Below, in pieces: positions 8,131-35,502 of a DNA stretch of 41,372 bases. Source of the stretch: a virus. Taxonomy: Duplodnaviria > Heunggongvirae > Uroviricota > Caudoviricetes. The number at the start of each line of letters is the position of its first letter. Positions within the stretch are counted from its first letter, which is position 1. Both the position numbers and the translations under genes were made by a program. The DNA lies in IMG/VR virus record IMGVR_UViG_2778261576_000004, positions 1 through 41,372 of that record; one strand, 5' to 3'. The notes beneath the pieces are model-generated. The model ran no database searches. It was not told where the DNA came from and worked only from the letters and a program-made list of their open reading frames with translations.

Positions 8131-8207
8131 TTACCTGTTAGGTAATAAAATATTCTAAAATCTATTGATTTCGTGTCTTATGTGGTTTTTAATTACCTCA
8201 GAGGTAA
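8131..8207. promoter_or_regulatory. Two palindrome copies (8131-8145, 8193-8207) plus a TATGTGGTT box (8179-8187) upstream of the 8211 gene
   Basis: Perfect TTACCTGTTAGGTAA and TTACCTCAGAGGTAA; the second ends 3 nt before ATG 8211 and overlaps the SD. Confidence 0.45.
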
Positions 8208-8210
8208 ATC

Positions 8211-8555
8211 ATGAGAAAACAGATACAGGCTCTTGGTCGACTCAAAACAGGTCAGATGAACAAAACAGAATCTGCGTATTGCCAGCACCTTGAGCTGCGT
8301 AAACGTGCAGGAGAAATCGTCTGGTATCGATTTGAGGGTATCAAGCTGCGGTTAGCTGACAACACGTTCTATACGCCCGATTTTGCTGTGATGCTCGCCA
8401 CCGGCGAGATGGAACTGCACGAAGTGAAAGGTTTCTGGACCGACGACGCCAGGGTGAAAACCAAAGTCGCCGCAGATCAGTATCCGTTCCGAATCATCGG
8501 GGTAACTGTTAAACCAAAGAAAGCAGGTGGTGGCTGGATCATCGAAGAGTTCTGA
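8211..8555 (+). CDS. PD-(D/E)XK-like nuclease (DUF1064-like phage protein)
   Basis: 114 aa with YTPDF...ELHEVKG (D...E-x-K) motif; family name from memory, not searched. Confidence 0.5.
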   Translation: MRKQIQALGRLKTGQMNKTESAYCQHLELRKRAGEIVWYRFEGIKLRLADNTFYTPDFAVMLATGEMELHEVKGFWTDDARVKTKVAADQYPFRIIGVTVKPKKAGGGWIIEEF

Positions 8556-8616
8556 ATCGACGATCTTTTTAGTTATCAATGTTATCAATAAGTTATGTGG
8601 ATAAGCGAGGGTAAAG

Positions 8617-9150
8617 ATGGAAAGTAATATCAAATGGTTAGTTGCCGCCGGGCATGAGATGGCTTCGGAACTGAAAGCAGAATGTGGTGCCGTTGATATG
8701 CGCAGTGTGGCAAAGCTGATCAGCGATTTGGCAACGCAACTGGAAGTGCAACTGGTGCGTGCTAATGCGCTGGCCGAAGACCAGCAGAAAGCGATTGAGT
8801 CAATTAAGCAGGCTGATGCAGCTGTTAAGTTGGCACACGAGAAGTTTTCGGCGCTGGCAGCGGAGAATGCGAGACTGAAATCTGCGCACCCTCAACCATT
8901 CGGACCTGAGATGATGAAGGCTATTGATGCGTATGAGAAGTATCAGGATGAAGTGCCGGAGACTGGGATGCTCAATGCATTTTTCATCTTGCGCGACAGT
9001 ATCCGTGTTGACACCACAGCCACCGATGCTTTCCTGGCTGAAGTGCGGGCGCAGGTGGTAGAGATGTTTGCGGAGTGTGCATACACGCTTGAACATCATG
9101 ATCACGCAGTAGCTTTTGCCGCCGAGCTACGTGAAGGAGGCAACCAGTGA
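8617..9150 (+). CDS. Ea22-like family protein (paralog 1)
   Basis: C-terminal 45 aa (ATDAFLAEVRAQ...HHDHAVAFAAELR.GGNQ) nearly identical to the end of the 10601-11248 product; shares the ALAAENA coiled-coil module with the other paralogs. Confidence 0.55.
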   Translation: MESNIKWLVAAGHEMASELKAECGAVDMRSVAKLISDLATQLEVQLVRANALAEDQQKAIESIKQADAAVKLAHEKFSALAAENARLKSAHPQPFGPEMMKAIDAYEKYQDEVPETGMLNAFFILRDSIRVDTTATDAFLAEVRAQVVEMFAECAYTLEHHDHAVAFAAELREGGNQ

Positions 9151-9446
9151 CTGTATGTCTTATTGATAAACGTCGACGTGGGCAACAAATACCATCTGTT
9201 GAAATGCCGAATCACACATGGTTTTGCGTACTTGATATCGATGGTATGGATACGTTGATCGACACTCGTCATTACTGCGATACCGCAACAGCTACTCCTG
9301 CAAAAGCAAAGAAAATGGCTGCTCTGATAGAAAACTGGACTCCACCTGATGGTTGGTGCAATGGGAATGATCGAGATTGGCACGAAAAAATGAAGGGCTA
9401 TATCTGCGATTTTTTACGTAAATGCAACGGATTCAGGGTGATGTGA
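9147..9446 (+). CDS. Hypothetical protein
   Basis: GTG start overlapping the upstream stop (CAGTGA junction); tightly packed within the Ea22-like array. Confidence 0.35.
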   Translation: MTVCLIDKRRRGQQIPSVEMPNHTWFCVLDIDGMDTLIDTRHYCDTATATPAKAKKMAALIENWTPPDGWCNGNDRDWHEKMKGYICDFLRKCNGFRVM

Positions 9447-9447
9447 T

Positions 9448-10317
9448 ATGACCAAAATTAACTATCAGGCACTGCGTGAAGCGGCAGAAAAGGCAACACC
9501 AGACGAATGGGTCGCATTTATTTCGACGGATACTGGTACTTATGCGGTGCACACGCCCGGTGATGAACGATGTGAAGACGTTATCAAATGGACCGGCTTT
9601 GATGGACAGAAAAATGCAGAGAACAACGCTCGTTATGTTGCCGCGTTCAACCCAAAGGTTGCACTGGAGCTGCTTGGTGAAATTAAGCGCCTGGAGGACA
9701 CAAATATTGATGCTATGTGTCGAATTGCAGAGCTTGAGACTAATCTCGCGGCGCTGGCAGCGGAGAATGCGGCGCTGAAGGCCGGGGCTATGTATTTCTC
9801 ATATGGCTCTGAATTTAGTTTCGAGTGTCACAAAACTGCTGAGGAGGCTATCGCTGCTGCTGAGGCTGCAATTGACGACTATAGAGGCGATGCTTGCGAT
9901 GGATGGAGCGAAGAGGTCGAAAGCATTTGCTGGGGGGTAATTATTCAGCAGGCAACCAAGGTCGGTGAACGCAAGAAGAGGAAATGCGACAGAGTATCAC
10001 CATGGATTGAAAGAGTTTGTGATTATGAGCTTCGACCTAATGTCGAAACCCCAGCCACCGATGCTTTCCTGTCTGAAATTCGTGCGGAAGCACGCAACGA
10101 GGGGATTAACTATACCGCCAGCCGTCTTGCTGCTGCGTTCAATCACGGATTTATCAATAAGTCTTTACGTGAAGTTTTCGACGTTACACGCATGATTTTG
10201 TCAGCGAAAGAAGAGTTGGCTAATGAAGCGCATCCGATTGATGGCCTGTCTGGTGAATATGCGGAGAAATCCCTTGAAGAATGGGCGGAACAGATTCGCA
10301 AAGGAAGCAGCCAGTGA
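9448..10317 (+). CDS. ead/Ea22-like family protein (paralog 2)
   Basis: N-terminus MTKINYQALREAAEKAT typical of ead/Ea22-like proteins; contains the ALAAENAALKA and ATDAFLSEIRA modules. Confidence 0.7.
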   Translation: MTKINYQALREAAEKATPDEWVAFISTDTGTYAVHTPGDERCEDVIKWTGFDGQKNAENNARYVAAFNPKVALELLGEIKRLEDTNIDAMCRIAELETNLAALAAENAALKAGAMYFSYGSEFSFECHKTAEEAIAAAEAAIDDYRGDACDGWSEEVESICWGVIIQQATKVGERKKRKCDRVSPWIERVCDYELRPNVETPATDAFLSEIRAEARNEGINYTASRLAAAFNHGFINKSLREVFDVTRMILSAKEELANEAHPIDGLSGEYAEKSLEEWAEQIRKGSSQ

Positions 10318-10604
10318 ATATCGACACGACAATAACGATCGATACGCTCCTAAATACCGGTCTGGCACTTCTCGGTTGGCTTTACATCATGTCCCGCACA
10401 TGGCGATGGCTGGGTTCCATTTTCCTAAAACAGTGGAAAAAACGGCGCAAACAGGAACTACGCCAGAAGGCATTAGAAGCGTTCTATGACGCATTTGAGC
10501 TTAGCCGCATTGAACCAGGTACAACAGCCAGGATAGCGACAAAAGGCGACCTGATGATAGTGATGTTCCGACAGGAGAGAGCAGAGAAAGGGGAATCAGC
10601 ATGA
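10314..10604 (+). CDS. Hypothetical small membrane protein
   Basis: GTG start overlapping the upstream stop (CAGTGA); hydrophobic segment LLNTGLALLGWLYIM followed by a basic stretch. Confidence 0.3.
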   Translation: MNIDTTITIDTLLNTGLALLGWLYIMSRTWRWLGSIFLKQWKKRRKQELRQKALEAFYDAFELSRIEPGTTARIATKGDLMIVMFRQERAEKGESA

Positions 10605-12015: not shown

Positions 12016-12016
12016 G

Positions 12017-12208
12017 ATGGACGGACAAATATCAATTACTCGACCTAACACAGGTGATGATGACAAGATAAGAATGGCTATTCGTCTGGAGAGAGGAAAA
12101 ACAATAACTGTCCTTGTTACCCCAGAAAATCTTGCATTAGCACTGACCGGAAAGTCAGAACTCCCCGTAGAGCTAGATGTGAGAAATGTTGAGATTAAGG
12201 TGAAATAG
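12017..12208 (+). CDS. Hypothetical small protein (63 aa)
   Basis: ATG at 12017 directly after the upstream stop; in-frame part of ORF-track entry 11855-12208. Confidence 0.3.
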   Translation: MDGQISITRPNTGDDDKIRMAIRLERGKTITVLVTPENLALALTGKSELPVELDVRNVEIKVK

Positions 12209-12210
12209 GT

Positions 12211-12972: not shown

Positions 12973-13322
12973 TGGACTATTCACAGTTAAGTGATTTTGA
13001 AATTAACAGAATGGTAGGAGACATAATTTTTAAAGGACTTTGGGCGTGTAAACCGGAAACATCAGGGAATAACACCAACAAATGGTATTACGGAAATACT
13101 GATACAACTTTTGAGCCATTAAACCCTTTACCTGACTACTGCAATAATCCATCGGATGCATGGCCTATTATTGTTGATAATAAAATCAGTCTAACCTGCC
13201 ACCACTCTCGCGGTGAGTGGTCAGCAGTTTTTAATGCCGACAACATTTGCTTTCATGCGAATAATCCACTCCGAGCCGCCATGATTGTATTTCTCATGAT
13301 GCAGGAAAATCAGAATGGCTAA
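12969..13322 (+). CDS. Hypothetical phage protein
   Basis: 117-aa ORF with overlapping stop/start on both sides; no confident domain call. Confidence 0.4.
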   Translation: MMDYSQLSDFEINRMVGDIIFKGLWACKPETSGNNTNKWYYGNTDTTFEPLNPLPDYCNNPSDAWPIIVDNKISLTCHHSRGEWSAVFNADNICFHANNPLRAAMIVFLMMQENQNG

Positions 13323-13653
13323 ATCAGCAGCAGAGCGCAAAGCCGCTCAGAGAGCCAGACAAGCTGCATCTGGCGTGCGTAAGCTGGAAATTGTGCTTGA
13401 TGCTCAGGAAATTGAAATGCTGGAGCGTAACTGTGCCACGCGTCGCCCCGGGCGTGCGCCTTACGAATTTGGTGAGTATATAGCGTTACTGATCCGCCAG
13501 GATGATGCACGCGTGCGCGGGCGTATAAAATCGATCAGCAGAAAACGTTGCGGTAAGTGCGGCGAGATAGTTCCTGTGAATTCATGCCCGTGTAATGGTG
13601 ACTCGCAATGCTGGGTGACCAAAGGCTGGCATGAAACGAAATTAATAGTGTGA
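13315..13653 (+). CDS. Hypothetical protein with basic N-terminus and C-terminal Cys cluster (candidate regulator)
   Basis: N-terminus MAKSAAERKAAQRARQAASG...; C-terminal CGKCGEIVPVNSCPCNGDSQC zinc-ribbon-like cluster; last gene before the terminase-proximal terminator. Confidence 0.4.
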   Translation: MAKSAAERKAAQRARQAASGVRKLEIVLDAQEIEMLERNCATRRPGRAPYEFGEYIALLIRQDDARVRGRIKSISRKRCGKCGEIVPVNSCPCNGDSQCWVTKGWHETKLIV

Positions 13654-13670
13654 CATGTCACGAAGGTGTT

Positions 13671-13883: not shown

Positions 13884-13888
13884 ATACT

Positions 13889-13914
13889 GCCGCCAACTAT
13901 GGCGGCTTTATTTT
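13889..13914 (+). terminator. Rho-independent terminator upstream of the terminase genes
   Basis: GCCGCC-AACTAT-GGCGGC hairpin followed by TTTATTTTG. Confidence 0.6.
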
Positions 13915-13925: not shown

Positions 13926-13940
13926 TTACCACAACGGTAA
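13926..13940. promoter_or_regulatory. TTACC-N5-GGTAA palindrome upstream of the terminase small subunit gene
   Basis: Perfect TTACCACAACGGTAA between the terminator and ATG 13958 (17 nt upstream); a partial repeat (CTATTACCAC) follows. Confidence 0.45.
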
Positions 13941-13957
13941 CTATTACCACGGTGGTT

Positions 13958-14554
13958 ATGATGCCTGCTGAACCTAAAACCTATAAACGCAAATCAACGC
14001 AATTTAAGCCGCTCACAGCAATGCAGGAGGCTTATTGCCAGTCATACATCAAAACGCCTGAAAACCAGACTCAGGCAGCGATTAACGCAGGATTCTCCCC
14101 AAATACAGCGGCAGTTAAAGCCAGTGTCATGATGCGCGATGAACGCATTCAAAAACGGATTGCCGAGTTGATGGAGGAGCGCAACAAACGAATGCGCGTC
14201 AGTGCTGATTACGTTCTCATGCGCCTGGTGGAGATCGACCAGATGGACGTGATCGACATCCTCAACGACGATGGGAGCCTTAAGCCAATCCGCGAGTGGC
14301 CGAAAATCTGGCGCACTACGCTTAGTGGCTTTGATCTGTCATCGACCATCATGAACATGAACGAGGATTCGATAGAGACAATCCTCAAAAAAATTAAATG
14401 GCCTGACAAGGTGAAGAACCTCGAACTGATTGGTAAGCACGTCGACGTCAACGCGTTCAAAGAACGCCTGGATGTTAATGTGAATGTGACAATTGCTGAT
14501 CGCATAGCGGCAGCCAGGAAGCGACTCAAAGAACGTCAGGATGGTAATCAGTGA
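13958..14554 (+). CDS. Terminase small subunit
   Basis: Directly upstream of and coupled to the large subunit; HTH-like N-terminus (TAMQEAYCQSYIK...AAINAGFSPNTAAVKAS). ORF-track start 13880 rejected because it spans the terminator. Confidence 0.65.
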   Translation: MMPAEPKTYKRKSTQFKPLTAMQEAYCQSYIKTPENQTQAAINAGFSPNTAAVKASVMMRDERIQKRIAELMEERNKRMRVSADYVLMRLVEIDQMDVIDILNDDGSLKPIREWPKIWRTTLSGFDLSSTIMNMNEDSIETILKKIKWPDKVKNLELIGKHVDVNAFKERLDVNVNVTIADRIAAARKRLKERQDGNQ

Positions 14555-16026
14555 CAGATACAGCGTTATCTCCTGAAGAGCAGTTGATCGAGGATATTGC
14601 AGGGTTCACTCACGATCCGCTTGGCTATGCCCTCTATGCGTTCCCGTGGGGGGAAGAGGGTACTGAACTGGCACATGCCACCGGTCCACGTCAGTGGCAG
14701 GCCGATGCGTTCCGAGAGATACGTGATCACCTGCAGAATCCAGAGACGCGATATCAGCCGCTTATGCTGGCACGTGCTTCTGGTCACGGTATTGGTAAAT
14801 CCGCATTCATCTCAATGCTGATCAACTGGGGCATGTCCACTTGCGAGGATTGTAAGGTCGTGGTGACCGCCAACACCGACAACCAGCTACGAACGAAGAC
14901 CTGGCCGGAAATTATCAAGTGGTCGAACCTTGCTATCACGAAAGACTGGTTTACCTGTACCGCTACCGCGATGTACAGCAATGATCCTGGGCACGACAAG
15001 CGGTGGCGAGCTGACGCAATCCCCTGGTCTGAGCACAACACTGAGGCATTCGCCGGACTACACAACGAGCGCAAACGCATCATCGTGGTATTCGATGAAG
15101 CGTCGAACATTGCGGATCTGGTGTGGGAAGTTGCCGAAGGTGCGCTAACTGACGAAGACACTGAGATTATCTGGGTGGCGTTCGGAAACCCGACGCGTAA
15201 TACCGGGCGATTCCGTGAATGTTTCCGCAAATATAAACACCGCTGGAAAACTGCGCAGATTGACAGCCGGACGGTGGAAGGCACTAACAAACAGCAGTTG
15301 CAGAAATGGGTTGATGACTACGGGGAAGACAGCGACTTCGTTAAAATCCGTGTGCGCGGCATATTCCCTGATGCATCTGAATTGCAGTTTATCCCTACCG
15401 GTCTTACTGATGAGGCAATGAAACGGGTGGTAACCGCTGCGCAGGTGGCGCATGCTCCGGTGATAATCGGTGTTGACCCGGCATATTCAGGCGTTGATGA
15501 CGCGGTGATATACCTGCGGCAGGGGCTACACAGTAAGGTGCTGTGGACTGGCAACAAGACTACCGACGATCTGATTATGGCGAAGCGTATCGCTGACTTT
15601 GAAGACCTGTATCAGGCTGACGCAGTGTTCATCGACTTTGGTTACGGTACCGGTCTGAAGTCAATCGGTGATGGTTGGGGGCGCACATGGCAACTTGTTC
15701 CGTTCGGTGGCGCGTCTACTGACCAGCAGATGCTCAACAAGCGTGGGGAGATGTTCAACTCATGCAAGACATGGCTGAGGCTGGGCGGGATGCTGGATGA
15801 CCAGGAAACAGCGGACGATCTGTCGGCGGCAGAGTACAAAGTTCGAGTGGACGGTAAAATCGTTATCGAACCGAAGGAAGATATCAAGGAGCGGCTTGGG
15901 CGTTCGCCTGGTAAAGGCGATGCGCTACTGCTGACGTTTGCGTTCCCTGTGTCGAAGCGTCTGCGAATTCCCGGGCAGCAGAACCAGCAAGGCAAGGCCA
16001 TCACAGATTACGATCCCTATGCTTAA
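14551..16026 (+). CDS. Terminase large subunit
   Basis: 491 aa; Walker A-like ARASGHGIGKS, Walker B-like IIVVFDEAS and a C-terminal nuclease-type region; GTG start overlapping the small-subunit stop. Confidence 0.9.
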   Translation: MTDTALSPEEQLIEDIAGFTHDPLGYALYAFPWGEEGTELAHATGPRQWQADAFREIRDHLQNPETRYQPLMLARASGHGIGKSAFISMLINWGMSTCEDCKVVVTANTDNQLRTKTWPEIIKWSNLAITKDWFTCTATAMYSNDPGHDKRWRADAIPWSEHNTEAFAGLHNERKRIIVVFDEASNIADLVWEVAEGALTDEDTEIIWVAFGNPTRNTGRFRECFRKYKHRWKTAQIDSRTVEGTNKQQLQKWVDDYGEDSDFVKIRVRGIFPDASELQFIPTGLTDEAMKRVVTAAQVAHAPVIIGVDPAYSGVDDAVIYLRQGLHSKVLWTGNKTTDDLIMAKRIADFEDLYQADAVFIDFGYGTGLKSIGDGWGRTWQLVPFGGASTDQQMLNKRGEMFNSCKTWLRLGGMLDDQETADDLSAAEYKVRVDGKIVIEPKEDIKERLGRSPGKGDALLLTFAFPVSKRLRIPGQQNQQGKAITDYDPYA

Positions 16027-16116
16027 TCCGCTGGTGGGGATAATGTCGTTGATATCCTCTGATGAGGATAAAACAAAGCCAGCTCATCGGCTGGCTGTTT
16101 GTGACATGTCACGGTG

Positions 16117-16488
16117 TTATTGCTCGCTTAGCTTCTGCTTCAGCAAGTAACCTTCGAGCATCCAGATTTTGTTTACAGCATTCTGCCGGGCAATCTTCCG
16201 ACCAATTTCTGCATCAAAGTTTTCCGGGCTTGCACAGGCGCTCTCTCCGGTGACGGTGAAGCCGTTGCGCAGCACCAGGACGCAGAACGTCAGCAGAGAA
16301 AGTGATTCGTGCGGCTGGTAGTTTACCTCTCCGCCAGTATGTTTCGCTTTTATGGCTTTGCCAAAGGCACCATCTTCTGCTGTGAAATATGCCTCCTGAG
16401 CAATAATGCCTTCGATATGGTCTGGCGTAACGCGCGGTGCCGTTTTGCCTTTCTCAACGATTTCTTTTTCGATTTGCTTGTCGTTCAT
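16117..16488 (-). CDS. Hypothetical protein (possibly Gp49/Sf6 gp66-like family)
   Basis: 123-aa minus-strand ORF inserted between terminase and portal genes on the opposite strand; family name from memory only. Confidence 0.4.
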   Translation of the reverse strand: MNDKQIEKEIVEKGKTAPRVTPDHIEGIIAQEAYFTAEDGAFGKAIKAKHTGGEVNYQPHESLSLLTFCVLVLRNGFTVTGESACASPENFDAEIGRKIARQNAVNKIWMLEGYLLKQKLSEQ

Positions 16489-16499
16489 AATCTCACCTT

Positions 16500-16523
16500 A
16501 AAAAAATGCCCGGCGAACCGGGC
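16500..16523 (-). terminator. Rho-independent terminator downstream of the tRNA (minus strand)
   Basis: GCCCGG-CGAA-CCGGGC hairpin with an A-run on the plus-strand side (U-tract on the minus strand), ending just before the SD of the 16488 gene. Confidence 0.55.
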
Positions 16524-16686
16524 GAACTGGAAGCAATGAGTTATGCCTTCCGTGGCTGTACGGGTTTACAGCATGAAGTCATCGCAATGGCGTCCTGCTG
16601 TAAAAAGGGCGGTGATAGTCCTTCAAGGGAAACCATCACCGCCAAGCCCCTGGAACTTCTGGCATCACGGTCCTTAGGCGTGATTC

Positions 16687-16763
16687 TGGCGTGGCATGCA
16701 GGATTCGAACCTGCGACCAACCGCTTAGAAGGCGGTTGCTCTGTCCGACTGAGCTAATGCCAC
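16687..16763 (-). tRNA. tRNA-Arg (anticodon UCU)
   Basis: Minus strand folds by hand into a cloverleaf: acceptor GTGGCAT/ATGCCAC, D-arm GCTC/GAGC, anticodon stem ACCGC/GCGGT with loop CTTCTAA, T-arm GCAGG-TTCGAAT-CCTGC, encoded CCA. Confidence 0.85.
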
Positions 16764-17085
16764 AACGCTGAGAGCACTTAGCCTGTTAAGGCGCCACACT
16801 TTGTCGCGGCTCCATAAATGCTCTCATCGTTGTACCCTCGTCTCTTCCGAGGCGTCACACCGAATCGCCGGGATGGTGAATCCCCGTGCGCGGAATAAAA
16901 CCGCTCGACTTGCACATTCCGGCTACCTGGTTCGTTTGCCCGAGCAAGGGAGGGTGCCCCTTAAACGTATCCAGACCGCTATCGGCGCATGTGCCATACG
17001 CCGTACTGCTCAAAATAAAAGCTCACTCCACCTGTTTAATTTAACGACAAGCCAGTCAGGTTAGTAACCAGAATGAGCTCTTTAG

Positions 17086-17165
17086 TTACCTGAAAGGTAA
17101 TAATTCACGCGTTAAATGTCAACCTTCTACGATAAATAAATCATATGTGGTTAAATTGGTAATAA
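17086..17165. promoter_or_regulatory. Palindrome (17086-17100) plus TATGTGGTT box (17144-17152) and GGTAATA (17159-17165) upstream of the portal operon
   Basis: Same arrangement as upstream of the tailspike gene (35438-35502). Confidence 0.45.
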
Positions 17166-17190
17166 TTTAATTGCGTACGGAGTCATTGAT

Positions 17191-17397
17191 ATGTGCATGG
17201 GTAGCTCACCATCAGTGCCTGCAACACCAGAAGTTCAGGCAGCACCACAGGAGCAGGATGCCGCCGTTGTTGATGCCCGCGACGAAGAAACACGTCGCCG
17301 TCGCGCTGCTGCTGGTCGTAGTTCTACGCTGCTTACCGGTTCTCAGGGCGACACATCAACCGCTAATACCAGCGGTAAAACGCTACTTGGTCAGTAA
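17191..17397 (+). CDS. Hypothetical small protein (68 aa)
   Basis: First ORF after the putative late promoter; its translation initiation region ACGGAGTCATTGATATG is nearly identical to that of the portal gene. Confidence 0.35.
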   Translation: MCMGSSPSVPATPEVQAAPQEQDAAVVDARDEETRRRRAAAGRSSTLLTGSQGDTSTANTSGKTLLGQ

Positions 17398-17411
17398 CCG
17401 GAGTCATTGAA

Positions 17412-19082
17412 ATGGCGGAAACAACTAAAGAGCGATTGAACAAACAGTTCGCACAACTTGAAAGCGAGCGTCAGTCGTTCGAGCCGCACTGGCGCGAGTT
17501 GAGTGATTACATCAACCCGCGTGGTTCCCGCTTTCTGACTTCTGAGGTCAACCGTAACGATCGACGCAATACACGCATTATTGATTCGACCGGGACTATG
17601 GCGGCGCGCACTCTCGCCAGCGGCATGATGTCAGGCATCACAAGCCCCGCGCGTCCGTGGTTTCGCCTGGCTACGCCAGATCCTGAAATGATGGATTATG
17701 GCCCTGTTAAGTTGTGGCTTGAGGCGGTGCAGAACCGCATGAACGATATGTTCAATAAGTCGAATCTCTATCAGTCGCTGCCGCAGTTATACGGAAGCCT
17801 CGGCACATACAGCACTGGTGCAATGGCAGTGCTGGAGGATGACGAGGACATCATTCGCACAATGCCATTCCCGATAGGCAGTTACTACCTGGCTAACTCA
17901 CCTCGTGGCAGTGTGGACACTTGTTTTCGCAAGTTCTCTATGACTGTTCGTCAGCTTGTTCAGGAGTTCGGGCTAAATAACGTCAGCGAATCCGTAAAAA
18001 GCATGTGGGAAAGCGGCACCTACGAGAAGTGGATTGAAGTGATGCATTCGGTTTACCCGAACATTGACCGCGATACATCGAAGCTGGATAGCAAGAACAA
18101 GCCATTCAAATCAGTTTATTACGAGGTTGGTGGCGATAACGACAAGTTGTTGCGTGAGTCCGGATTCGATGAGTTTCCAATTATGGCTCCGCGCTGGGAA
18201 GTTAACGGCGAAGATGTTTATGGATCATCATGCCCGGGTATGCTGGCGCTTGGACCTGTTAAGGCATTGCAGCTTCTCCAGAAGCGCAAGTCGCAGTTGA
18301 TTGATAAAGCCACCAATCCGCCGATGGTTGCTCCGACTTCCCTCAAGAATCAGCGCGCCTCCCTTCTTCCTGGCGACATCACGTATATCGATCAGATTAC
18401 TGGTCAGGATGGTTTCAGGCCTGCTTATCTGGTTAACCCCAGTACAGCAGATCTGGTGGCAGACATTCAGGACACTCGCCAAATCATTAACAGCGCCTAC
18501 TTTGTCGATCTGTTCATGATGTTGCAGAACATCAATACCCGCTCGATGCCTGTTGAAGCGGTGATCGAAATGAAAGAAGAAAAACTTCTGATGTTGGGGC
18601 CGGTTCTGGAGCGTCTGAACGACGAATGTCTTAATCCTCTCATTGACCGCGCTTTCTCGATGATGGTGCGTAAAAACATGCTGCCGCCACCGCCTGACGC
18701 GATGGAAGGTATGCCCCTGAAGGTCGAATACATTTCCGTCATGGCTCAGGCGCAGAAGTCTATCGGCCTGTCCAGTCTGGCATCCACGGTCAACTTCATT
18801 GGTCAACTTGCGCAAGCGAAACCAGAAGCTCTCGACAAACTCAACGTTGATCAGGCGATCGATGCATTCGCTGATATGTCCGGAGTGTCTCCAACCGTCA
18901 TTGTTCCGCAGGAACAGGTTGAGCAGGCTCGCCAGCAACGGGCACAGCAGCAACAGCAGCAACAAATGATGGCGATGGGGATGGCGGCGGCACAGGGTGC
19001 CAAGACGCTAAGCGAAGCTAAAACTTCGGATCCGAGTGTTTTGTCAGCTATGGCGAATGCAGTTAGTGGTCAGGGTGGGTAA
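17412..19082 (+). CDS. Portal (head-to-tail connector) protein, T7 gp8-like
   Basis: 556 aa; Gln/Ala/Met-rich C-terminus (QQQQQQQMMAMGMAAAQGA) and overall layout resemble the T7-type connector as recalled. Confidence 0.8.
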   Translation: MAETTKERLNKQFAQLESERQSFEPHWRELSDYINPRGSRFLTSEVNRNDRRNTRIIDSTGTMAARTLASGMMSGITSPARPWFRLATPDPEMMDYGPVKLWLEAVQNRMNDMFNKSNLYQSLPQLYGSLGTYSTGAMAVLEDDEDIIRTMPFPIGSYYLANSPRGSVDTCFRKFSMTVRQLVQEFGLNNVSESVKSMWESGTYEKWIEVMHSVYPNIDRDTSKLDSKNKPFKSVYYEVGGDNDKLLRESGFDEFPIMAPRWEVNGEDVYGSSCPGMLALGPVKALQLLQKRKSQLIDKATNPPMVAPTSLKNQRASLLPGDITYIDQITGQDGFRPAYLVNPSTADLVADIQDTRQIINSAYFVDLFMMLQNINTRSMPVEAVIEMKEEKLLMLGPVLERLNDECLNPLIDRAFSMMVRKNMLPPPPDAMEGMPLKVEYISVMAQAQKSIGLSSLASTVNFIGQLAQAKPEALDKLNVDQAIDAFADMSGVSPTVIVPQEQVEQARQQRAQQQQQQQMMAMGMAAAQGAKTLSEAKTSDPSVLSAMANAVSGQGG

Positions 19083-19386: not shown

Positions 19387-20082
19387 ATGAATTTATTTGA
19401 GCGTTTGCTGTATCGCCGTCTTTGCAATGAGCAACCAGTCGATGGTGGAGCAGCTCCGGCTGCGTCAGAACCGTCAGCGCCTGCAGGTGATAACCCTGCT
19501 CCAGTTGGTGATCCATCACAACCGGAAGGTGATAAGCCACAACCTGTTGCTGATGGCGATAAACCTGCTGATGACAAAAAGCCTGAAAACGATAAGCAGG
19601 ATGAAAAAAAGGACGGCGATAAACCAGAGGGTGCGCCTGAGAAGTACGAGTTTCAGGCTGCCGAAGGCGTAGAGCTGGATACAGAAGCGTTGAAGGAATT
19701 CGAGCCGGTGGCGCGAGAACTAAACCTGACCAACGAGCAAGCGCAAAAGCTGGTTGATGCTTATCCGAAGATTCTGGCAGGTGTTCAGCAGCGCCAGGCA
19801 GAAGCCTGGCAGAAAACAACCGAGCAGTGGGCTGCGGATGTAAAAGCTGACAAAGAAATCGGTGGCGACAAGTTGATTTCTAACCTTAGCGCCGCACAGC
19901 GTGCGCTTGACCAGTTCGGGACACCTGAACTCAAAGAATATCTGAACACCACCGGGCTGGGTAATCACCCTGATCTGGTCAAAACGTTCGTGAAAATTGG
20001 AAAGGCGATGTCTGAAGATGGCATGGTCACCGGTGGTAATGAAGGCCAGCGTAGTGCGGCCGAAGTGCTCTATGGCAAATAA
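19387..20082 (+). CDS. Putative scaffolding protein
   Basis: Position between portal and capsid genes; acidic, Pro/Lys-rich low-complexity N-terminal half and helical C-terminal half; ATG 19387 with AGGAG SD. Confidence 0.55.
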   Translation: MNLFERLLYRRLCNEQPVDGGAAPAASEPSAPAGDNPAPVGDPSQPEGDKPQPVADGDKPADDKKPENDKQDEKKDGDKPEGAPEKYEFQAAEGVELDTEALKEFEPVARELNLTNEQAQKLVDAYPKILAGVQQRQAEAWQKTTEQWAADVKADKEIGGDKLISNLSAAQRALDQFGTPELKEYLNTTGLGNHPDLVKTFVKIGKAMSEDGMVTGGNEGQRSAAEVLYGK

Positions 20083-32649: not shown

Positions 32650-32661
32650 TAGGTGACCTTT

Positions 32662-33111
32662 ATGTTCAAGAAGATGATCAACAGATTAATCGGTGGTAAG
32701 GAGGTTAGCAATAAAATTCAACCTCTTATCTTTAAGGATAACTTTTCAGCTTTTGAGTATGCGTGTAAGTATCTTGACACAAGCCTTTCAGCCAATAAAC
32801 CAATGCCAGCCATCATCATACCTGGTCCCAGTGGGGAACAGCCAGTTTTGCTGGATTCTGGAAGACAAAGGGCAATGCTGAAGGTGTGCTCAGCTGATGG
32901 TGGATTTTTTGTTATTGCCGATTCATCTTACAGCAAAGGACCAAAGCTGAGGATTGGTGATCTTGTTGCTTGGTTGCCTGTGAGTTATGCCGAAGAATTA
33001 ACGGATAAAATAGAAGATCCTCGCTCCGCTATGGTTGGCTTTATATTGGGAACCATTCATCCTGAACTAACATCTACTGGCTGGAAGGGTAAAGAAAGAT
33101 TTCGCAAGTAG
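32662..33111 (+). CDS. Hypothetical protein (AT-rich accessory gene)
   Basis: ATG 32662 with AGGTGA SD; divergent from the 32209-32649 gene with almost no spacer; followed by a terminator. Confidence 0.4.
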   Translation: MFKKMINRLIGGKEVSNKIQPLIFKDNFSAFEYACKYLDTSLSANKPMPAIIIPGPSGEQPVLLDSGRQRAMLKVCSADGGFFVIADSSYSKGPKLRIGDLVAWLPVSYAEELTDKIEDPRSAMVGFILGTIHPELTSTGWKGKERFRK

Positions 33112-33125
33112 CGTGACATGTCACA

Positions 33126-33149
33126 GGCCGCTTTCGCGGCCTTGTTTTT
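33126..33149 (+). terminator. Rho-independent terminator
   Basis: GGCCGC-TTTC-GCGGCC hairpin followed by TTGTTTTT; directly preceded by the GTGACATGTCAC palindrome. Confidence 0.6.
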
Positions 33150-33309
33150 AACGAATGCCACCGCCGCCCGGACGGGAATCCGCAGAACGCCCACCGCAGC
33201 GGGAGCCGTCAGCAGCAGTGTCGCTGTCGTGCTGACAACGACCGGCAAAGGCCTGAGTTGAAGCTACCAGAGACAACAAAACGAACAGTGCAGCAAATGC
33301 TTTTTTCAT
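33148..33309 (-). CDS. Hypothetical small secreted peptide
   Basis: Predicted signal peptide MKKAFAALFVLLSLVASTQAFA followed by a 31-aa Gly/Arg-rich tail with two Cys; weak SD. Confidence 0.25.
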   Translation of the reverse strand: MKKAFAALFVLLSLVASTQAFAGRCQHDSDTAADGSRCGGRSADSRPGGGGIR

Positions 33310-33401
33310 TGTGAAATTTCCATCTATAAGCCACCTCAATGTGGCGTCAATGAGTGTAGCACTGACTTTTGTTTCGCCCACAAAAAAGCCCGCAGCGCGG
33401 G

Positions 33402-33842
33402 CTATTCTTCTTCATCATTAAAAAGCGGATTGTTGTTTCCATCTGATGAAAGGAAAGGTATGTGTTCTCTTGAAAATCCAACAATGACAATTTCATTATC
33501 ATTTTTTGCATAATGAATGCATTCATTAGAATGCCTTCCGCCAGGGTTGAAATTTAAGTTAATGGTATAATTCTTAAATGTGTTTGGATACCATGTTGGC
33601 CCACAATGATAATGCCAATAATTCTCTTGCTCATAATTGTCTGAGCCGGGAATTTTATCATGGTTATCATCAACCCACGAGGGCTTGTTTTTTCCAACAA
33701 GCGCCCTTCCATTGGCAACATCCTCTAAAAAACTTTGTATGATTTTTATTTCATCATCAGTAAGGAAAGGTCCGTCTACAGCGAAAGGGGTGTTGCTTTC
33801 CCCATGTAGAAAACTATTAGATATTCTAATGTTAAACTTCAA
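33402..33842 (-). CDS. Hypothetical protein (AT-rich, probable TTG start)
   Basis: TTG at 33842 preceded by CAGGAG SD; AT-rich; downstream partner of the 33863-34030 gene. The ORF-track N-terminal extension to 33983 overlaps the better-supported small gene. Confidence 0.4.
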   Translation of the reverse strand: MKFNIRISNSFLHGESNTPFAVDGPFLTDDEIKIIQSFLEDVANGRALVGKNKPSWVDDNHDKIPGSDNYEQENYWHYHCGPTWYPNTFKNYTINLNFNPGGRHSNECIHYAKNDNEIVIVGFSREHIPFLSSDGNNNPLFNDEEE

Positions 33843-33862
33843 GGAAAACTCCTGATGTGCTT

Positions 33863-34030
33863 CTATTTGGAGCGAAATGCCGCCTTGAAGTCGCTGAAAG
33901 ATGTTCCTGTCTGGTAAACCATATCCTTGTCGCGCTCTTTGCTTGCGCGGCCAAGCATAACTTTTCCAATGACATCCCAGCATTGCTTGGCTTGTTCATT
34001 GTGCTGAGTACGATTTTTCAACGCTGTCAT
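33863..34030 (-). CDS. Hypothetical small protein (55 aa)
   Basis: ATG 34030 with a strong AAGGAGG SD 6 nt upstream and a palindrome copy directly 5' of it; translation MTALKNRTQHNEQAKQCWDVIGKVMLGRASKERDKDMVYQTGTSFSDFKAAFRSK. Confidence 0.4.
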   Translation of the reverse strand: MTALKNRTQHNEQAKQCWDVIGKVMLGRASKERDKDMVYQTGTSFSDFKAAFRSK

Positions 34031-34042
34031 ATCGCGCCTCCT

Positions 34043-34057
34043 TTACCTTTAAGGTAA
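34043..34057. promoter_or_regulatory. TTACC-N5-GGTAA palindrome at the 5' end of the small-gene cassette
   Basis: Perfect TTACCTTTAAGGTAA abutting the SD; upstream on the minus strand are a TTGCAG -35-like and TACTAT -10-like hexamer with 17-bp spacing. Confidence 0.4.
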
Positions 34058-34129
34058 TAGTACGCTATTCACCCACAGTCTGCAATCTGTACAGAATTAT
34101 TTAAAGGCACATCCCTGTGCCGCCGCCCG

Positions 34130-34786
34130 TCAGAAGAACCCAGCCTTGTCGTTGATGTACTCCGCGTGGGTCTGGATATCACGCAGGCATTTGCTCACAC
34201 CAACAATGTAGCAGAACATGGTGGTCAGCTCCGCCGCCGCACCCGATACGTCGTGCCCGTCTTCCTGTAACTGGTTCAGCAGATTCATCAGCAGTGAGTT
34301 CTCCGTCAGGCCGAGAACACCAGACGGCGAATGAATCAGGCTACGGTAGCCGGGCTTCAGTGGGGCGCTGTATTCTTTTTTGTCTTCCAGCTTGATCGCC
34401 TCCATAATGGCGGGCATGAAGCCTGACAAGACCTTCTCCACTTTTGTTTCTTGTTGTCTTAAACGTTTCTCGCATTCAATGAAGTAGCGTCGCACCTGGC
34501 GACCTTTTTCGTTACGCTCGACCATCGCCAGCTCTTTGGCTGTATCAAGGGTGAGGTGGTACTCTTTGCGGTTGTGGCCGCCTCTACCAGATGTTTGCTT
34601 TCCCAAATTGGAAAGCAAAATATAGTCTTGATTTTCAATGAATTCGTATTCTGATATGCGATTTGTAATCCATGCTGCAAACACCTTTTTAACACCTAAA
34701 AAAGCGTGCAGATCGCGGGCATTACAAAGTAGGGCTGTTTCGTTAGATATAGTGCCGTTGAATACGGGGATGAGTTGAGCGTTCAT
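34130..34786 (-). CDS. Phage antirepressor (AntA/AntB-type N-terminal domain)
   Basis: N-terminus [38 protein letters not shown] matches the AntA pattern as recalled; C-terminal domain shared with the 35104-35361 product; GGAGA SD. Confidence 0.7.
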
Positions 34787-35103
34787 GATGGCGTCTCCAC
34801 TTAGCGAATTACATCACCACCGCTGAGACCAATCAGATGGTGGTGAACTGAACGGAGTTGGTCTTACCGGCCTAAGTGGTACCGGCGTCCTTTCGGACCC
34901 CCATTCAGCCCACCATAATTCTGGCATGACTGTGCTATACGCATAAAAAAACCACGTCTGGCGTGGTATGCGCCACTTAGTAATCCGGGAGACCAATCCC
35001 GGCACTGGATTTTGCCAGTGCCCGATTACTATGGCACAAGAGGAGTGCGATGTAAATTTACCGCAAAGGTAAATATAAGCACTCCTTTTGGTAATTGCAA
35101 ACC
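34787..35103 (-). other. Structured non-coding leader/spacer with intrinsic terminator
   Basis: Several perfect hairpins (e.g. CCGGGA-GACCAA-TCCCGG, CACTGG-ATTTTG-CCAGTG), a minus-strand terminator (CCACG-CCAGA-CGTGG then T7) near 34943-34964, and a palindrome copy (35058-35072) nested in an 8-bp stem (AGGAGTGC/GCACTCCT). Confidence 0.4.
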
Positions 35104-35361
35104 TTATCTGGTTTGTTTACGTAATTGTTCGGCACAATAGTCGAGATGTGTTTGCAGATCCCGCATAGACATCTGTGAGCTGGTGACGTAGTTAATCAGT
35201 GCAGTCAGTTCGGCAAGTGGGCCATCGACATTAAATCCATCCTTATCGAGCTCCCGGAGTAATTTCATCAAGTGCGATCCCTCCACCAGTGATCTGACGC
35301 CTCCCGGCGTGTGAATCCTTTCGGTAAATCCGTCTTCCAGTGGATAGTGATACTGCTGCAT
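35104..35361 (-). CDS. Small protein homologous to the antirepressor C-terminal domain
   Basis: ...TPGGVRSLVEGSHLMKLLRELDKDGFNVDGPLAELTALINYV... aligns by eye with ...[42 protein letters not shown]... of the antirepressor; ATG 35361 with GGAGAA SD (ORF-track TTG at 35379). Confidence 0.45.
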   Translation of the reverse strand: MQQYHYPLEDGFTERIHTPGGVRSLVEGSHLMKLLRELDKDGFNVDGPLAELTALINYVTSSQMSMRDLQTHLDYCAEQLRKQTR

Positions 35362-35437
35362 CTTATCTTCTCCATGCAATAACTGTATATTTATACAGTA
35401 TCAAATAATTTGTTTGCTATCCAGCACGTTTTGAAAA

Positions 35438-35502
35438 TTACCTGAAAGGTAATATATATTCGTATTTACAGCCTTTCTATCCATATGTGGTTTTACAGGT
35501 AA
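35438..35502. promoter_or_regulatory. Palindrome (35438-35452) plus TATGTGGTT box (35484-35492) and GGTAATA in the divergent region upstream of the tailspike gene
   Basis: TTACCTGAAAGGTAA is identical to the copy upstream of the portal operon. Confidence 0.45.

Follow-up and report, generated by a model that had tools for sequence, protein, structure and literature searches.

Repeated palindromes ahead of the transcription units of a phiV10/epsilon15-like prophage probably form a repressor-controlled operator and promoter grammar

The recurring order of a palindrome, a short box, and a GGTAA motif ahead of operons in the 41,372-nucleotide stretch of DNA analyzed here (the window) probably represents a repressor-controlled grammar of operators and promoters belonging to a prophage of the epsilon15/phiV10 type, and not a new promoter class; we put the probability of this reading at roughly 0.6. 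The window is a phiV10/epsilon15-like (Uetakevirus) prophage, 98-99% identical to phiV10, TL-2011b, and ZX5 from 16800 through the portal gene. Of the two palindromes involved, O1 is already known from its annotation in the relative epsilon15, and O2, which is apparently unannotated, sits on what look like weak ordinary promoters. The directly observed part of this work comprises motif statistics, positions, conservation, and homologies.

O1, (A)TTACC-N5-GGTAA(T), is the commonest 5+5 palindrome in the window and four relatives. The window holds 10-14 copies versus 0.08-0.66 expected: with at most one mismatch, TTACCTNNNAGGTAA matches 10 times (0.08 expected) and TTACCNNNNNGGTAA 14 times (0.66 expected). 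It recurs at orthologous places in three further genomes and six prophage loci of other species. Almost all transcription units begin with one or two copies: PL, PR/Prep, terS, the replication and DUF1064 operons, the divergent tRNA/portal and ant/tailspike regions, and two leftward accessory operons. Ahead of the lysis genes, the window carries an O1 half-site alone, whereas relatives have a full O1. Across 80 E. coli prophage loci with a 100% identical Rep match, variable positions number 5 of 70 in the O1 arms, 20 of 35 in the centers, and 83 of 402 in the intergenic sequence around them (arms versus centers, Fisher p = 4e-8). Across genera, too, the arms are invariant and the centers differ, the A+T fraction of the center tracking the Rep lineage (0.68 versus 0.89). 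Such variation suggests the signature of a protein site. The epsilon15 record AY150271.2 labels the same 16-17-mers 'protein_bind: repressor', among them those ahead of terS (12-27), the portal operon (2931-2947), and the tailspike gene (19895-19911).

The regulatory genes, and the LexA box associated with one of them, are as follows:
5163-5744, minus strand: Rep immunity repressor, homologue of Rep of Salmonella phage SPC32H (PDB 5D50_A, E 4e-42, residues 1-190), with a recognition-helix stretch NLVNRW unchanged in six relatives.
5899-6129, plus strand: Cro-like HTH protein, divergent from rep and candidate O2 binder (phrog_35 'transcriptional repressor', E 5.6e-13).
35107-35361, minus strand: Ant antirepressor, SPC32H Ant homologue (PDB 5D50_E, E 7e-47), with start codon and Shine-Dalgarno read from the sequence.
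35383-35398: LexA box CTGTATATTTATACAG 5' of ant, read from the sequence; its ACTGTAT and A-ACAGTA are unchanged in five genomes.

The sites of the early region are:
5026-5040: O1 TTACCGTTGAGGTAA, at -10/+1 of leftward PL.
5068-5040, leftward: PL, TTGACA-17-AATTAT (promoter scan, 10/12).
5046-5059: O2 filling positions 4-17 of the PL spacer, with a good right arm ATGCGTATATGGTT (box at 5051).
5088-5102: O1, distal PL site, 62 bp from 5026.
5800-5814, 5817-5831, and 5848-5862: rep/cro intergenic O1 sites, the second weak (GCACC..GGTAA), the third TTACC..GGTGA.
5838-5843, rightward: candidate PR -35 TTGATT, the third rep/cro O1 lying just 3' of it.
6185-6199: O1 GTACCTCAAAGGTAA, directly past the cro terminator.
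6205-6218: perfect O2 AACCAAATATGGTT.
6217-6222 and 6240-6245: candidate replication-operon promoter, -35 TTGATC, 17 nt, CAAAAT.
8131-8145: O1 TTACCTGTTAGGTAA, in the spacer of TCGACA-16-TAAAAT (8124-8151; scan, 10/12).
8165-8193, plus strand: candidate DUF1064 promoter TTGATT-17-TTTAAT, read from the sequence, with the architecture of PL.
8174-8187: box/O2 half TGTCTTATGTGGTT in the DUF1064 promoter spacer (TATGTGGTT at 8179-8187).
8193-8207: O1 TTACCTCAGAGGTAA, over -10/+1 and the Shine-Dalgarno of the DUF1064 gene, 62 bp from 8131.

The O1 copies thus gather around PL and between rep and cro, the places required of an immunity operator, and, because of this placement and the epsilon15 annotation, we consider O1 the predicted, and probable, operator of the SPC32H-type tetrameric repressor Rep. 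This weighs against the phage-specific promoter class proposed in the earlier note. The 62-bp spacing of the PL pair is kept in all relatives, and the PL O2 is a full dyad, ATCCATATATGGTT, in Tyrion. The last two T of the O2 at 6205-6218 are the first two bases of the replication-operon -35, and both hexamers of that candidate promoter are kept in five lineages. The related arrangement noted earlier before the DUF1064-like gene (TTACCTGTTAGGTAA, TATGTGGTT, and TTACCTCAGAGGTAA within 8131-8207) holds, with CTATTGA and the box kept in eight genomes. The fourth site, at 8594-8613, drops out of the set: it lacks the palindrome and occurs only in E. coli phages; its supposed box, TATGTGGATAA, is a perfect DnaA-box consensus, and its GGTAAAG is part of a ribosome-binding region. 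Conversely, the set extends well beyond three to four operons, to PL, rep/cro, the post-cro site, terS, 34043, 35058, and the lysis operon.

In the late and accessory regions, we found the following:
13926-13940 and 13944-13958 (GGTTA arm): two adjoining O1 over the terS ribosome-binding region.
16687-16763, minus strand: tRNA-Arg(UCU), transcribed away from the portal operon (Rfam, 73.3 bits; ARAGORN).
17086-17100: O1 upstream of the portal operon (TTACCTGAAAGGTAATA at 17086-17102).
17139-17152: portal O2 AATCATATGTGGTT (CATATGTGGTT at 17142-17152), overlapping a weak -35 ATCATA (17140-17145).
17158-17168, plus strand: O1 half-site GGTAAT, 5 bp past O2, then candidate -10 TAATTT (17163-17168).
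34043-34057: O1 adjoining the -10 of a leftward candidate promoter.
34085-34080 and 34062-34057, minus strand: that promoter, TTGCAG-17-TACTAT, found by eye.
34133-34786: AntA-family gene (Pfam AntA, E 4e-26).
34836-34920, minus strand: C4 antisense RNA (Rfam, 61.2 bits), upstream of the AntA-family gene.
34945-35021, minus strand: isrK (Rfam, 67.7 bits), upstream of the AntA-family gene.
35058-35113, minus strand: leftward isrK-C4-AntA promoter module, with O1 (35058-35072), -10 TATATT (35077-35072), O1 half-site (35090-35094), -35 TTGCAA (35100-35095), and O2 AACCTTATCTGGTT (35100-35113).
35431-35460: TTGAAA-18-TATATT (scan, 10/12), with the tailspike O1 in its spacer.
35438-35452: O1 between ant and the tailspike gene (TTACCTGAAAGGTAATA at 35438-35454).
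35479-35492: tailspike O2 ATCCATATGTGGTT (CATATGTGGTT at 35482-35492), overlapping a weak -35 TCCATA (35480-35485).
35498-35508, plus strand: tailspike O1 half-site GGTAA, then candidate -10 TAGAAT (35503-35508).
38202-38231, plus strand: lysis-operon module, GGTAA (38202-38206), 5 nt, perfect O2 AACCATAAATGGTT (38212-38225), then TATCAT.

The common order of palindrome, box, and GGTAATA at the portal operon (GGTAATA at 17158-17164) and the tailspike gene (35498-35504) is borne out by the sequence, and its elements can be resolved further. The TATGTGGTT box makes up the center and right arm of another dyad, A(A/T)CCA-TATN-TGGTT (O2), 14 bp long. GGTAATA, 5 bp away from O2, is half of an O1 site and adjoins a TAnnnT -10 hexamer, TAATTT at the portal operon and TAGAAT at the tailspike gene. 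Exact TATNTGGTT occurs 11 times in the window (1.16 expected), and AACCANNNNTGGTT with at most one mismatch 11 times (1.5 expected) and, in phiV10, nine times (1.1 expected), an approximately eightfold enrichment; four O2 copies lie near O1 where 0.46 are expected. In the 80 E. coli loci, none of 15 right-arm positions varies, and the N position takes all four bases. O2 overlaps the -35 of sigma-70-like promoters or sits inside or against their spacer. The O1-O2 center distance is the same in every genome having both sites and close to whole helical turns: 52.5 bp at the portal operon (7/7 genomes), 40.5 bp at the tailspike gene (five genomes), 41.5 bp in the 35058 module, 43.5 bp ahead of the lysis genes (where relatives have O1 and then O2), 19.5 and 42.5 bp at PL and the DUF1064 promoter, and 19.5 bp after cro. 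In two genomes with a drifted tailspike O2, the O1-to-GGTAA distance is still 59-60 bp. This order and spacing, kept in phages of E. coli, Salmonella, Enterobacter, and Klebsiella, uphold the earlier proposal of a shared architecture; it is regulatory and conserved, recurs at orthologous promoters, and fronts operons needing promoters of their own.

The claim that none of these regions matches sigma-70 well stands for the portal operon, where the promoter scan found no plus-strand sigma-70 site within 16000-17450 and the best fit by eye is ATCATA-17-TAATTT; it does not stand for the 10/12 matches at the tailspike gene and at 8131. The portal hexamers, the DUF1064 TTTAAT, and the tailspike TCCATA were read by eye and fail the scan criteria, the DUF1064 promoter because its -10 lacks A at position 2. 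The scan called TTGCAA-17-TATATT of the isrK-C4-AntA module and GTAACA-17-TATCAT at the lysis operon. A 27-nt block at the portal promoter, TAT(G/A)TGGTTAAATTGGTAATAATTTAA, has one variable position across seven genomes; at the tailspike promoter GGTAATAGAAT is unchanged in five, and a conserved T(T/C/A)CATA-17-TAGAAT underlies the box. The portal promoter is intrinsically weak and may depend on an activator, even though a new promoter class is disfavored. On the minus strand, the portal O1 contains a candidate -10, TACCTT, 17 nt from a conserved TTGACA (17122-17117); the likely product of this leftward promoter is the tRNA-Arg(UCU), also present in TL-2011b, phiV10, SPN1S, and BUCT711.

We infer the binders, the transcription starts, and the sign (positive or negative) of regulation through O2. 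As the binder of O2 we tentatively propose the Cro-like protein, which is confined to the 37 phage records in which Rep, too, occurs and whose AGTTSHYIQxHLT stretch is unchanged in six relatives. A second binding mode of Rep is a more doubtful candidate, and the remaining probability goes to some other factor. O2 is missing between rep and cro, an oddity if it were the operator of Cro. Across genera it retains a consensus distinct from that of O1 and a core spacing that differs by 1 bp, which argues for a separate protein and against the main reading. Its distance to the -10 hexamer, which varies among 0, 7, and 10 bp, also speaks against the main reading.

Rep could conceivably account for everything, although we find this doubtful. 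O2 would then be another type of Rep site, sharing the ACC/GGT core but spaced 1 bp wider, and one tetramer, with four DNA-binding domains, would span two neighboring dyads: O1+O1 at PR and terS (16-18 bp apart), O1+O2 (19.5 bp) at PL, post-cro, and DUF1064, and, in front of the portal operon and the tailspike gene, O2 together with half an O1. Coliphage 186 offers a precedent, as its CI uses a single HTH on two distinct operator types and it has a LexA-controlled antirepressor, Tum. Supporting this are the common ACC...GGT core, the tolerance of O1 arms for GGTTA, GGTGA, TCACC, and GCACC, and the location of O2 5 bp from an O1 or half-site at 7/7 promoter-near copies in the window. Further, Rep is described in published secondary accounts as a tetramer that binds palindromic sites through two pairs of DNA-binding domains drawn from different dimers (PMC9638917) and has a looping-type tetramerization domain (PMC9986798). 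However, the perfect consensus AACCATATATGGTT is held across genera with no drift towards or away from O1, and O2 is unchanged between two Rep lineages that are 42% identical, even as O1 centers change. Moreover, a third O1 replaces the PL O2 in Salmonella phages, which shows that neither site can simply stand in for the other at a given location.

It is unlikely, too, that O2 is the site of a phage activator that makes up for the -35 lacking in the portal, tailspike, and lysis promoters, works from a position near -40.5 on those of the replication operon and isrK-C4-AntA, and represses PL and DUF1064; a single factor, most plausibly the Cro-like protein, would thereby set the early-to-late order and leave lysogenic silence alone to O1 and Rep. 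The best O2 dyads do lie at weak promoters (no sigma-70 call at the portal, -35 TCCATA at the tailspike), the lysis copies range from perfect to 1-2 mismatches, and at 6205 and 35100 O2 shares 2 bp with the -35, its center falling near -40.5, a class-II-like position. Strong promoters (PL, TTGACA, 10/12) hold O2 in the spacer, often as a half-site alone, the Cro-like recognition helix is as invariant as O2, and none of the small early proteins examined proved to be a Q- or N-type regulator; it would be unusual for a phage to lack temporal control altogether. Yet the position of O2 relative to the -10 (about -19.5, -26.5, -29.5, or -40.5) is atypically variable for one activator, neither the late terS operon nor the rep/cro region has O2, and its nearly constant placement 5 bp from an O1 or half-site fits a joint operator at least equally well. 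The regulator earlier suggested, the 13315-13653 product, goes with another palindrome, GTGACATGTCAC, in this phage, Pectobacterium phage ZF40, and N15, and ZF40 lacks both the TTACC palindrome and the box. Very improbable is a role as leader hairpins or RNase III sites, or as boundaries for the exchange of cassettes (tailspike, O-antigen modification, and accessory genes). The O1 17-mer can form a 7-bp hairpin (-5.8 kcal/mol, z = -3.1), would be transcribed from +1 at four promoters, and belongs to modules flanking cassettes that differ among relatives, and the epsilon15 record predicts nearby RNase III sites. Nevertheless, the arms are invariant without compensatory changes while the loop varies, O2 folds poorly (-0.9 kcal/mol), an Rfam search found no family at O1 or O2 sites, sites flank promoters on both sides, including stretches not expected to be transcribed, and the PL and PR positions are those of operators.

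Under the preferred reading of a repressor-controlled grammar, Rep bound to O1 in the lysogen would repress each unit directly. At PL, the DUF1064 promoter, 34043, and 35058, O1 itself would cover -10/+1. For the portal, tailspike, and lysis promoters, the center of O1 lies ~68-82 bp 5' of the inferred start, which is not a classical position for steric repression; hence, repression there would need the proximal composite, looping, or an O1 that serves the divergent leftward promoter. Rep tetramers on the distal O1 and the proximal composite of O2 and half-site may keep these weak promoters closed. SOS induction would then remove LexA from the ant promoter, and Ant would strip Rep from the DNA, opening all units of the prophage.

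On sequence grounds, the window is a phiV10/epsilon15-like (Uetakevirus) prophage, because Escherichia phages vB_EcoP_ZX5, PAS61, TL-2011b, and phiV10 share 98-99% identity with it from 16800 through the portal gene, and because its gene order agrees with the annotated genomes of phiV10, TL-2011b, SPN1S, Tyrion, and epsilon15. The Rep-Ant lysis/lysogeny switch of Salmonella phage SPC32H was reportedly worked out by Kim and Ryu in 2013 and Kim et al. in 2016, with PDB entries 5D4Z and 5D50. Like that switch, the window has Rep and Ant homologues and a LexA box at ant; by contrast, its Rep, which is 100% identical to that of phiV10, is only 42% identical to the SPC32H lineage, and its operator centers are less A+T-rich.

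Immunity functions in the window
5163-5744, minus strand: immunity repressor, homologue of SPC32H Rep (194 aa; PDB 5D50_A, E = 4e-42)
5899-6129, plus strand: Cro-like protein, divergent from rep
35107-35361, minus strand: antirepressor, homologue of SPC32H Ant (PDB 5D50_E, E = 7e-47)
35383-35398: LexA box CTGTATATTTATACAG (consensus CTGT-N8-ACAG) upstream of ant, read from the sequence and conserved in relatives

Rep has been described as a tetramer that binds palindromic sites via two pairs of DNA-binding domains, and Ant as its inactivator (PMC9638917; PMC9986798).

The earlier note had described a palindrome, a TATGTGGTT box, and a GGTAATA-type string in a constant order before several operons. 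The quoted strings were confirmed at their coordinates and their enrichment over expectation counted, and phages of four host genera retain the three-part order before both the portal operon and the tailspike gene. The palindrome, (A)TTACC-N5-GGTAA(T), here called O1, is far in excess: with up to one mismatch, TTACCTNNNAGGTAA has 10 matches in the window against 0.08 expected, and TTACCNNNNNGGTAA has 14 against 0.66. TTACC-N5-GGTAA is the commonest 5+5 palindrome in the window, TL-2011b, phiV10, SPN1S, and Tyrion (8-10 exact copies each), and O1 also occurs at orthologous places in epsilon15, BUCT711, and BUCT554 and in six prophage loci of other enterobacterial species. All strong copies are intergenic, symmetric dyads.

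Copies of O1 in the window
5026 and 5088: promoter PL, in the interval separating rep from the leftward early operon
5800, 5817 (weak), and 5848: rep/cro intergenic region
6185: past the cro terminator
8131 and 8193: DUF1064 gene
13926 and 13944: terS
17086, 34043, 35058, and 35438: further copies

Because O1 clusters at PL and between rep and cro, in a layout common to seven relatives, it is a candidate immunity operator. The annotation of epsilon15 already includes this dyad, with its copies before the portal and tailspike genes; record AY150271.2 labels the same 16-17-mers (features including ATTACCTAAAAGGTAAT and ATTACCTGTAAGGTAAT) as "protein_bind, repressor, lysogeny". The annotated motif, ATTACC-N5-GGTAAT, is the same and lies in the same places, namely at terS, upstream of the gp3/portal operon, and upstream of the tailspike gene, with further copies at PL (three) and at the RuvC/DUF1064 position. 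That these are repressor sites is the annotation of the record; that they are Rep operators in the present phage is a prediction. The record leaves unmarked its own three rep/cro copies and the proximal RuvC/DUF1064 copy (35969), and has nothing at the TATGTGGTT dyad or the GGTAATA half-site; it predicts IHF sites beside two operators, which the E. coli phages do not conserve. In all relatives an O1-like TTACC-N5-GGTAT also forms part of a longer inverted repeat (GACGGTAT...ATACCGTC) that precedes the integrase gene (26870 in genome L002, 26986 in L003, 28568 in L004, 26882 in L005; the equivalent stretch is outside the window), where it may act as an int-controlling Rep site or belong to the attP architecture.

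The pattern of variation speaks to the nature of O1. Between genera the arms are unchanged, and the five central bases vary at orthologous sites. Within E. coli we used 80 prophage loci, namely those returned with a Rep alignment from a scan of viral contigs; every Rep match was 100% identical, which made the sample of no use for covariation, and it served for a polymorphism test. The arms are variable at 5 of 70 positions, against 20 of 35 in the center (p = 4e-8), and flanking intergenic DNA at 83 of 402. The A+T fraction of the center is 0.68 in the phiV10/Tyrion lineage versus 0.89 in the epsilon15/BUCT711 lineage, the Rep of which is only 42-45% identical to that of the former; the presumed recognition stretch of Rep, NLVNRW, is invariant, and the three residues preceding it differ between the lineages. 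Since the arms are fixed, the centers vary, and their A+T content tracks the Rep lineage, O1 is best read as a protein-binding dyad and not as a hairpin. An RNA reading of the repeats was rejected on the same invariant arms and varying centers, which show no compensatory changes, and at gathering threshold an Rfam scan matched only the tRNA, isrK, and C4, all away from the O1 and O2 sites. A contig scan for distant Rep relatives returned the two known lineages and relatives confined to the N-terminus, with other recognition helices and other repeats (e.g., ACAACC in a Paraburkholderia contig), and was hence uninformative for covariation. In the portal-related Cobetia phage Carin1, which is without Rep or Cro, neither O1 nor O2 was found.

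Comparison of all copies of the TATGTGGTT box showed it to be one half of a second element, the 14-bp palindrome A(A/T)CCA-TATN-TGGTT, here called O2. TATNTGGTT occurs 11 times in the window against 1.16 expected; with up to one mismatch, O2 is found 11 times against 1.5 expected (9 against 1.1 in phiV10; 6 against 0.9 in SPN1S), and four window copies lie near an O1 where 0.46 are expected. In the 80-locus sample the TGGTT arm is variable at 0 of 15 positions, and the N position takes all four bases.

Copies of O2 in the window
6205: perfect, AACCAAATATGGTT
38212: perfect, AACCATAAATGGTT
17139: one mismatch, AATCATATGTGGTT
35100: one mismatch, AACCTTATCTGGTT
35479: one mismatch, ATCCATATGTGGTT
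5046 and 8174: half-sites, with fuller dyads in other genomes (Tyrion ATCCATATATGGTT, AACCGTATATGGAT)

To our knowledge, O2 fits the consensus of none of CRP, IHF, Fis, DnaA, sigma-54, sigma-E, sigma-32, sigma-28, PdhR, and RutR. An exact-O2 scan of viral contigs gave 120 matches, mostly random and about 11 of them Uetakevirus-like, and was uninformative on a host factor. The dyad and its phased spacing are in neither the epsilon15 annotation nor the literature searched, in which full-text queries with the motif strings gave nothing relevant and no mention of O2; an earlier description is possible in Kropinski 2007, Kim and Ryu 2013, or Kim et al. 2016, which lay outside the search. The ZX5 paper predicts four promoters and describes no operator sequence. 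The fourth site of the earlier note, at 8594, does not belong to the set: it has no palindrome, its TATGTGGATAA is a DnaA-box consensus, and its GGTAAAG is part of the ribosome-binding region, the string being confined to the E. coli phages. Only the E. coli phages have the DnaA-box-like cluster to which this supposed box belongs; it occupies 8573-8604, past the DUF1064 gene and ahead of the following one, and consists of two copies of GTTATCAAT followed, on the minus strand, by a perfect TTATCCACA.

The third part of the architecture, GGTAATA, is the right arm of O1 in extended form (GGTAAT); at the portal and tailspike promoters, exactly 5 bp separate it from O2. The same 5-bp gap sets O2 apart from an O1 or O1 half-site at PL, past cro, at DUF1064, in the 35058 module, and ahead of the lysis genes. 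The distances between the centers of O1 and O2 sites are the same in every genome where both were found.

Center-to-center distances between O1 and O2
Portal: 52.5 bp
Tailspike: 40.5 bp
35058 module: 41.5 bp
Lysis: 43.5 bp
PL and DUF1064: 19.5 and 42.5 bp
After cro: 19.5 bp

These values are near 2, 4, and 5 helical turns. For the O1 pairs at PL and DUF1064 the separation is exactly 62 bp in group A genomes and between 61 and 63 bp in the others. As the linkers diverge in sequence and keep their length, the arrangement points to contacts between bound proteins. In the near-invariant block upstream of the portal operon, an inverted repeat, TTAAATT-GGTAAT-AATTTAA (17151-17170), has the O1 half-site at its center; its transcript would fold into a hairpin with many G-U pairs, but the stability of the whole region is unremarkable (z = -0.98).

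Promoters were called where sigma-70 hexamers 16-18 bp apart scored 9 or more matches out of 12 and the -10 had A as its second and T as its sixth base; further candidates, conserved across genomes, were picked by eye.

Promoters and their dyads
PL, called: TTGACA-17-AATTAT, O1 at -10/+1, O2 in the spacer
8124, called: TCGACA-16-TAAAAT, spacer holding the 8131 O1
35431, called: TTGAAA-18-TATATT, spacer holding the 35438 O1
35100 module, leftward, called: TTGCAA-17-TATATT, 35058 O1 at -10/+1, O2 touching the -35
38203, called: GTAACA-17-TATCAT, spacer holding the 38212 O2
8165-8193, by eye: TTGATT-17-TTTAAT, same architecture as PL
6217-6245, by eye: TTGATC-17-CAAAAT, replication operon
Tailspike gene, by eye: T(T/C/A)CATA-17-TAGAAT, GGTAATAGAAT invariant
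Portal operon, by eye: ATCATA-17-TAATTT, in a 27-nt block

The view of the earlier note that no site matches sigma-70 well holds for the portal operon, where the scan called nothing on the plus strand, and fails at 8124 and 35431. Because of that null call the portal promoter is taken to be intrinsically weak; the 27-nt block around it has one variable position among seven genomes. The tailspike pair (TCCATA-17-TAGAAT in the window) matches just 3 of 6 positions of the -35. Its candidate -10 is flanked, only in the E. coli phages, by inverted CATAT(G/C)TGGTT copies, the second being AACCAGATATG (reverse complement of CATATCTGGTT) at 35509-35519, just 3' of the -10. The portal, tailspike, and lysis operons need promoters of their own, since each follows a terminator or a divergent gene. 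From the end of O2 to the candidate -10 there are 0 bp at PL, the DUF1064 promoter, and the lysis promoter of the window; the gap is 7 bp for the lysis promoter of phiV10 and 10 bp for the promoters of the portal operon and the tailspike gene. The O2 copies at 6205 and 35100 are upstream of the -35.

Not every O1 need serve the operon downstream. A minus-strand TTGACA (17122-17117), kept in six of seven genomes and TTGACC in the seventh, is spaced 17 nt from a TACCTT inside the 17086 O1, for which reason this copy may primarily control a leftward promoter formed by that pair. On the same strand lies the following gene:

16687-16763, minus strand: tRNA-Arg(UCU), between terL and the portal operon (Rfam, ARAGORN)

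TL-2011b, phiV10, SPN1S, and BUCT711 also have it, whereas Tyrion, epsilon15, and BUCT554 lack it; because the tRNA overlaps the plus-strand ORF 16506-16757, annotated as a hypothetical protein in phiV10 and TL-2011b, that ORF is probably spurious. The leftward promoter of the 35058 module is predicted to drive isrK, the C4 antisense RNA, and an AntA-family gene. The C4 RNA and the isrK Hfq-binding RNA (34836-35021, minus strand), each of which exceeds the Rfam gathering score, immediately precede an AntA/AntB-family antirepressor gene (34133-34786, minus strand), in an arrangement resembling the immI region of P1, as a second antirepressor module beside the LexA-controlled Ant.

As to what binds O2, the Cro-like protein is our leading candidate, at a probability of about 0.4. 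Its distribution coincides with that of Rep (the same 37 phage records), its HTH is invariant, and its similarity to the N-terminal domain of Rep, weak and in register (BLASTP E = 0.001; hhalign E = 0.07), fits two related, distinct dyads with a shared ACC/GGT core; the rep/cro region, however, is without O2. Rep itself would be a somewhat less probable binder, for which speak the four DNA-binding domains per tetramer, the consistent position of O2 beside an O1 or a half-site, and the tolerance of O1 for a GGTTA arm. What probability remains falls to another factor. The regulator suggested in the earlier note, the 112-aa product of 13315-13653, was rejected, as Pectobacterium phage ZF40 has a 67%-identical homologue and neither O1, O2, nor TATGTGGTT. 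PDB searches with this regulator and with the Cro-like protein gave no matches, and on the small conserved early proteins Pfam, PHROGs, and NCBIfam gave no match to the Ogr, Delta, Lpa, Mor, or C families.

The 112-aa regulator (phrog_536) has, by eye on the translation, a ribbon-helix-helix-like N-terminus and a CxxC...CxC...C motif, and its gene carries GTGAC-N2-GTCAC over or just past the stop codon in the window, in ZF40 (genome L008, 14944), and in N15 (L141, 3270). A third palindrome, GTGACATGTCAC, occurs at operon ends: at this stop codon (13650-13661), after terL (16101-16112), and after the last structural gene just before the terminator (33113-33124), three copies against about 0.04 expected. 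It is probably the binding site of the regulator and possibly linked to termination or antitermination. Elsewhere, the replication-initiator gene (6496-7311) contains, at 6750-6902, six direct repeats of iteron type with the core CCCAAAAACGGGA, at intervals of 18-24 bp except for a single 45-bp gap; they are probably the phage origin, and two further 12-bp repeats, AACCAGTCAT(A/T)T, follow at 6904-6927.

Direct silencing of many operons by dispersed operators is known in kind. The C1 operators of P1 and the gp71 "stoperators" of mycobacteriophage L5 are asymmetric sites dispersed over the genome and read by one repressor, the L5 sites working inside transcribed regions in an orientation-dependent manner. 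The present system is like these in having a dozen or more dispersed, predicted repressor sites and many operons that would be silenced directly, and unlike them in that its sites are symmetric, at promoters, and often paired 62 bp apart or with a second type of dyad; a stoperator reading of the L5 type (asymmetric, oriented, inside operons) was rejected because the sites are symmetric and the strong copies all intergenic. The late promoters of P1 Lpa, Mu C/Mor, P2 Ogr, and lambda CII have a dyad at a fixed distance from the -10 and a known activator gene. The portal and tailspike promoters resemble them in a weak or absent -35, a TAnnnT -10, and a dyad over the -35 or spacer, yet the distance from O2 to the -10 varies, O2 is also in strong early spacers, and the searches gave no homologue of an activator. 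The CI repressor of coliphage 186 has two operator types, with Tum as antirepressor. Here too a LexA-controlled antirepressor would induce and a multimeric repressor may read two dyads, but the systems are unrelated in sequence, and that Rep reads both dyads is only a hypothesis.

For the lysogen we infer a scheme in which Rep on O1 would silence every transcription unit separately, directly over -10/+1 at four promoters and perhaps jointly with the proximal O2/half-site composite, via looping or neighbor contacts. On DNA damage, LexA would leave the ant promoter, Ant would remove Rep, and the units would open. O2 could add a timing layer, repressing where it fills a spacer and activating where it replaces a weak -35. 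An extended version, which we regard as speculative and improbable, makes O2 the operator of the Cro-like protein in a single-protein temporal switch: in the spacer it would shut off the strong early PL and DUF1064 promoters, at a weak -35 it would turn on replication, isrK-C4-AntA, portal, tailspike, and lysis, and the upstream Rep operator, in helical register, would hold a veto in the lysogen. No Q- or N-type regulator was recognized among the small early proteins searched.

Should O2 prove only an auxiliary operator, the finding would amount to routine phage regulation; a Cro-like O2 switch, if true, would give a temperate podovirus family an early-to-late logic not described before. Prophages of the phiV10/epsilon15 type, which carry O-antigen-modifying genes, are common in E. 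coli, Salmonella, Klebsiella, and Enterobacter and have found use as reporter and biocontrol phages. A Rep operator of its own at nearly every transcription unit would explain how a single antirepressor event opens the whole genome. O2, with its fixed, helically phased spacing, offers a handle on the early-to-late control of this group and could aid the design of tightly repressed or inducible phage promoters.
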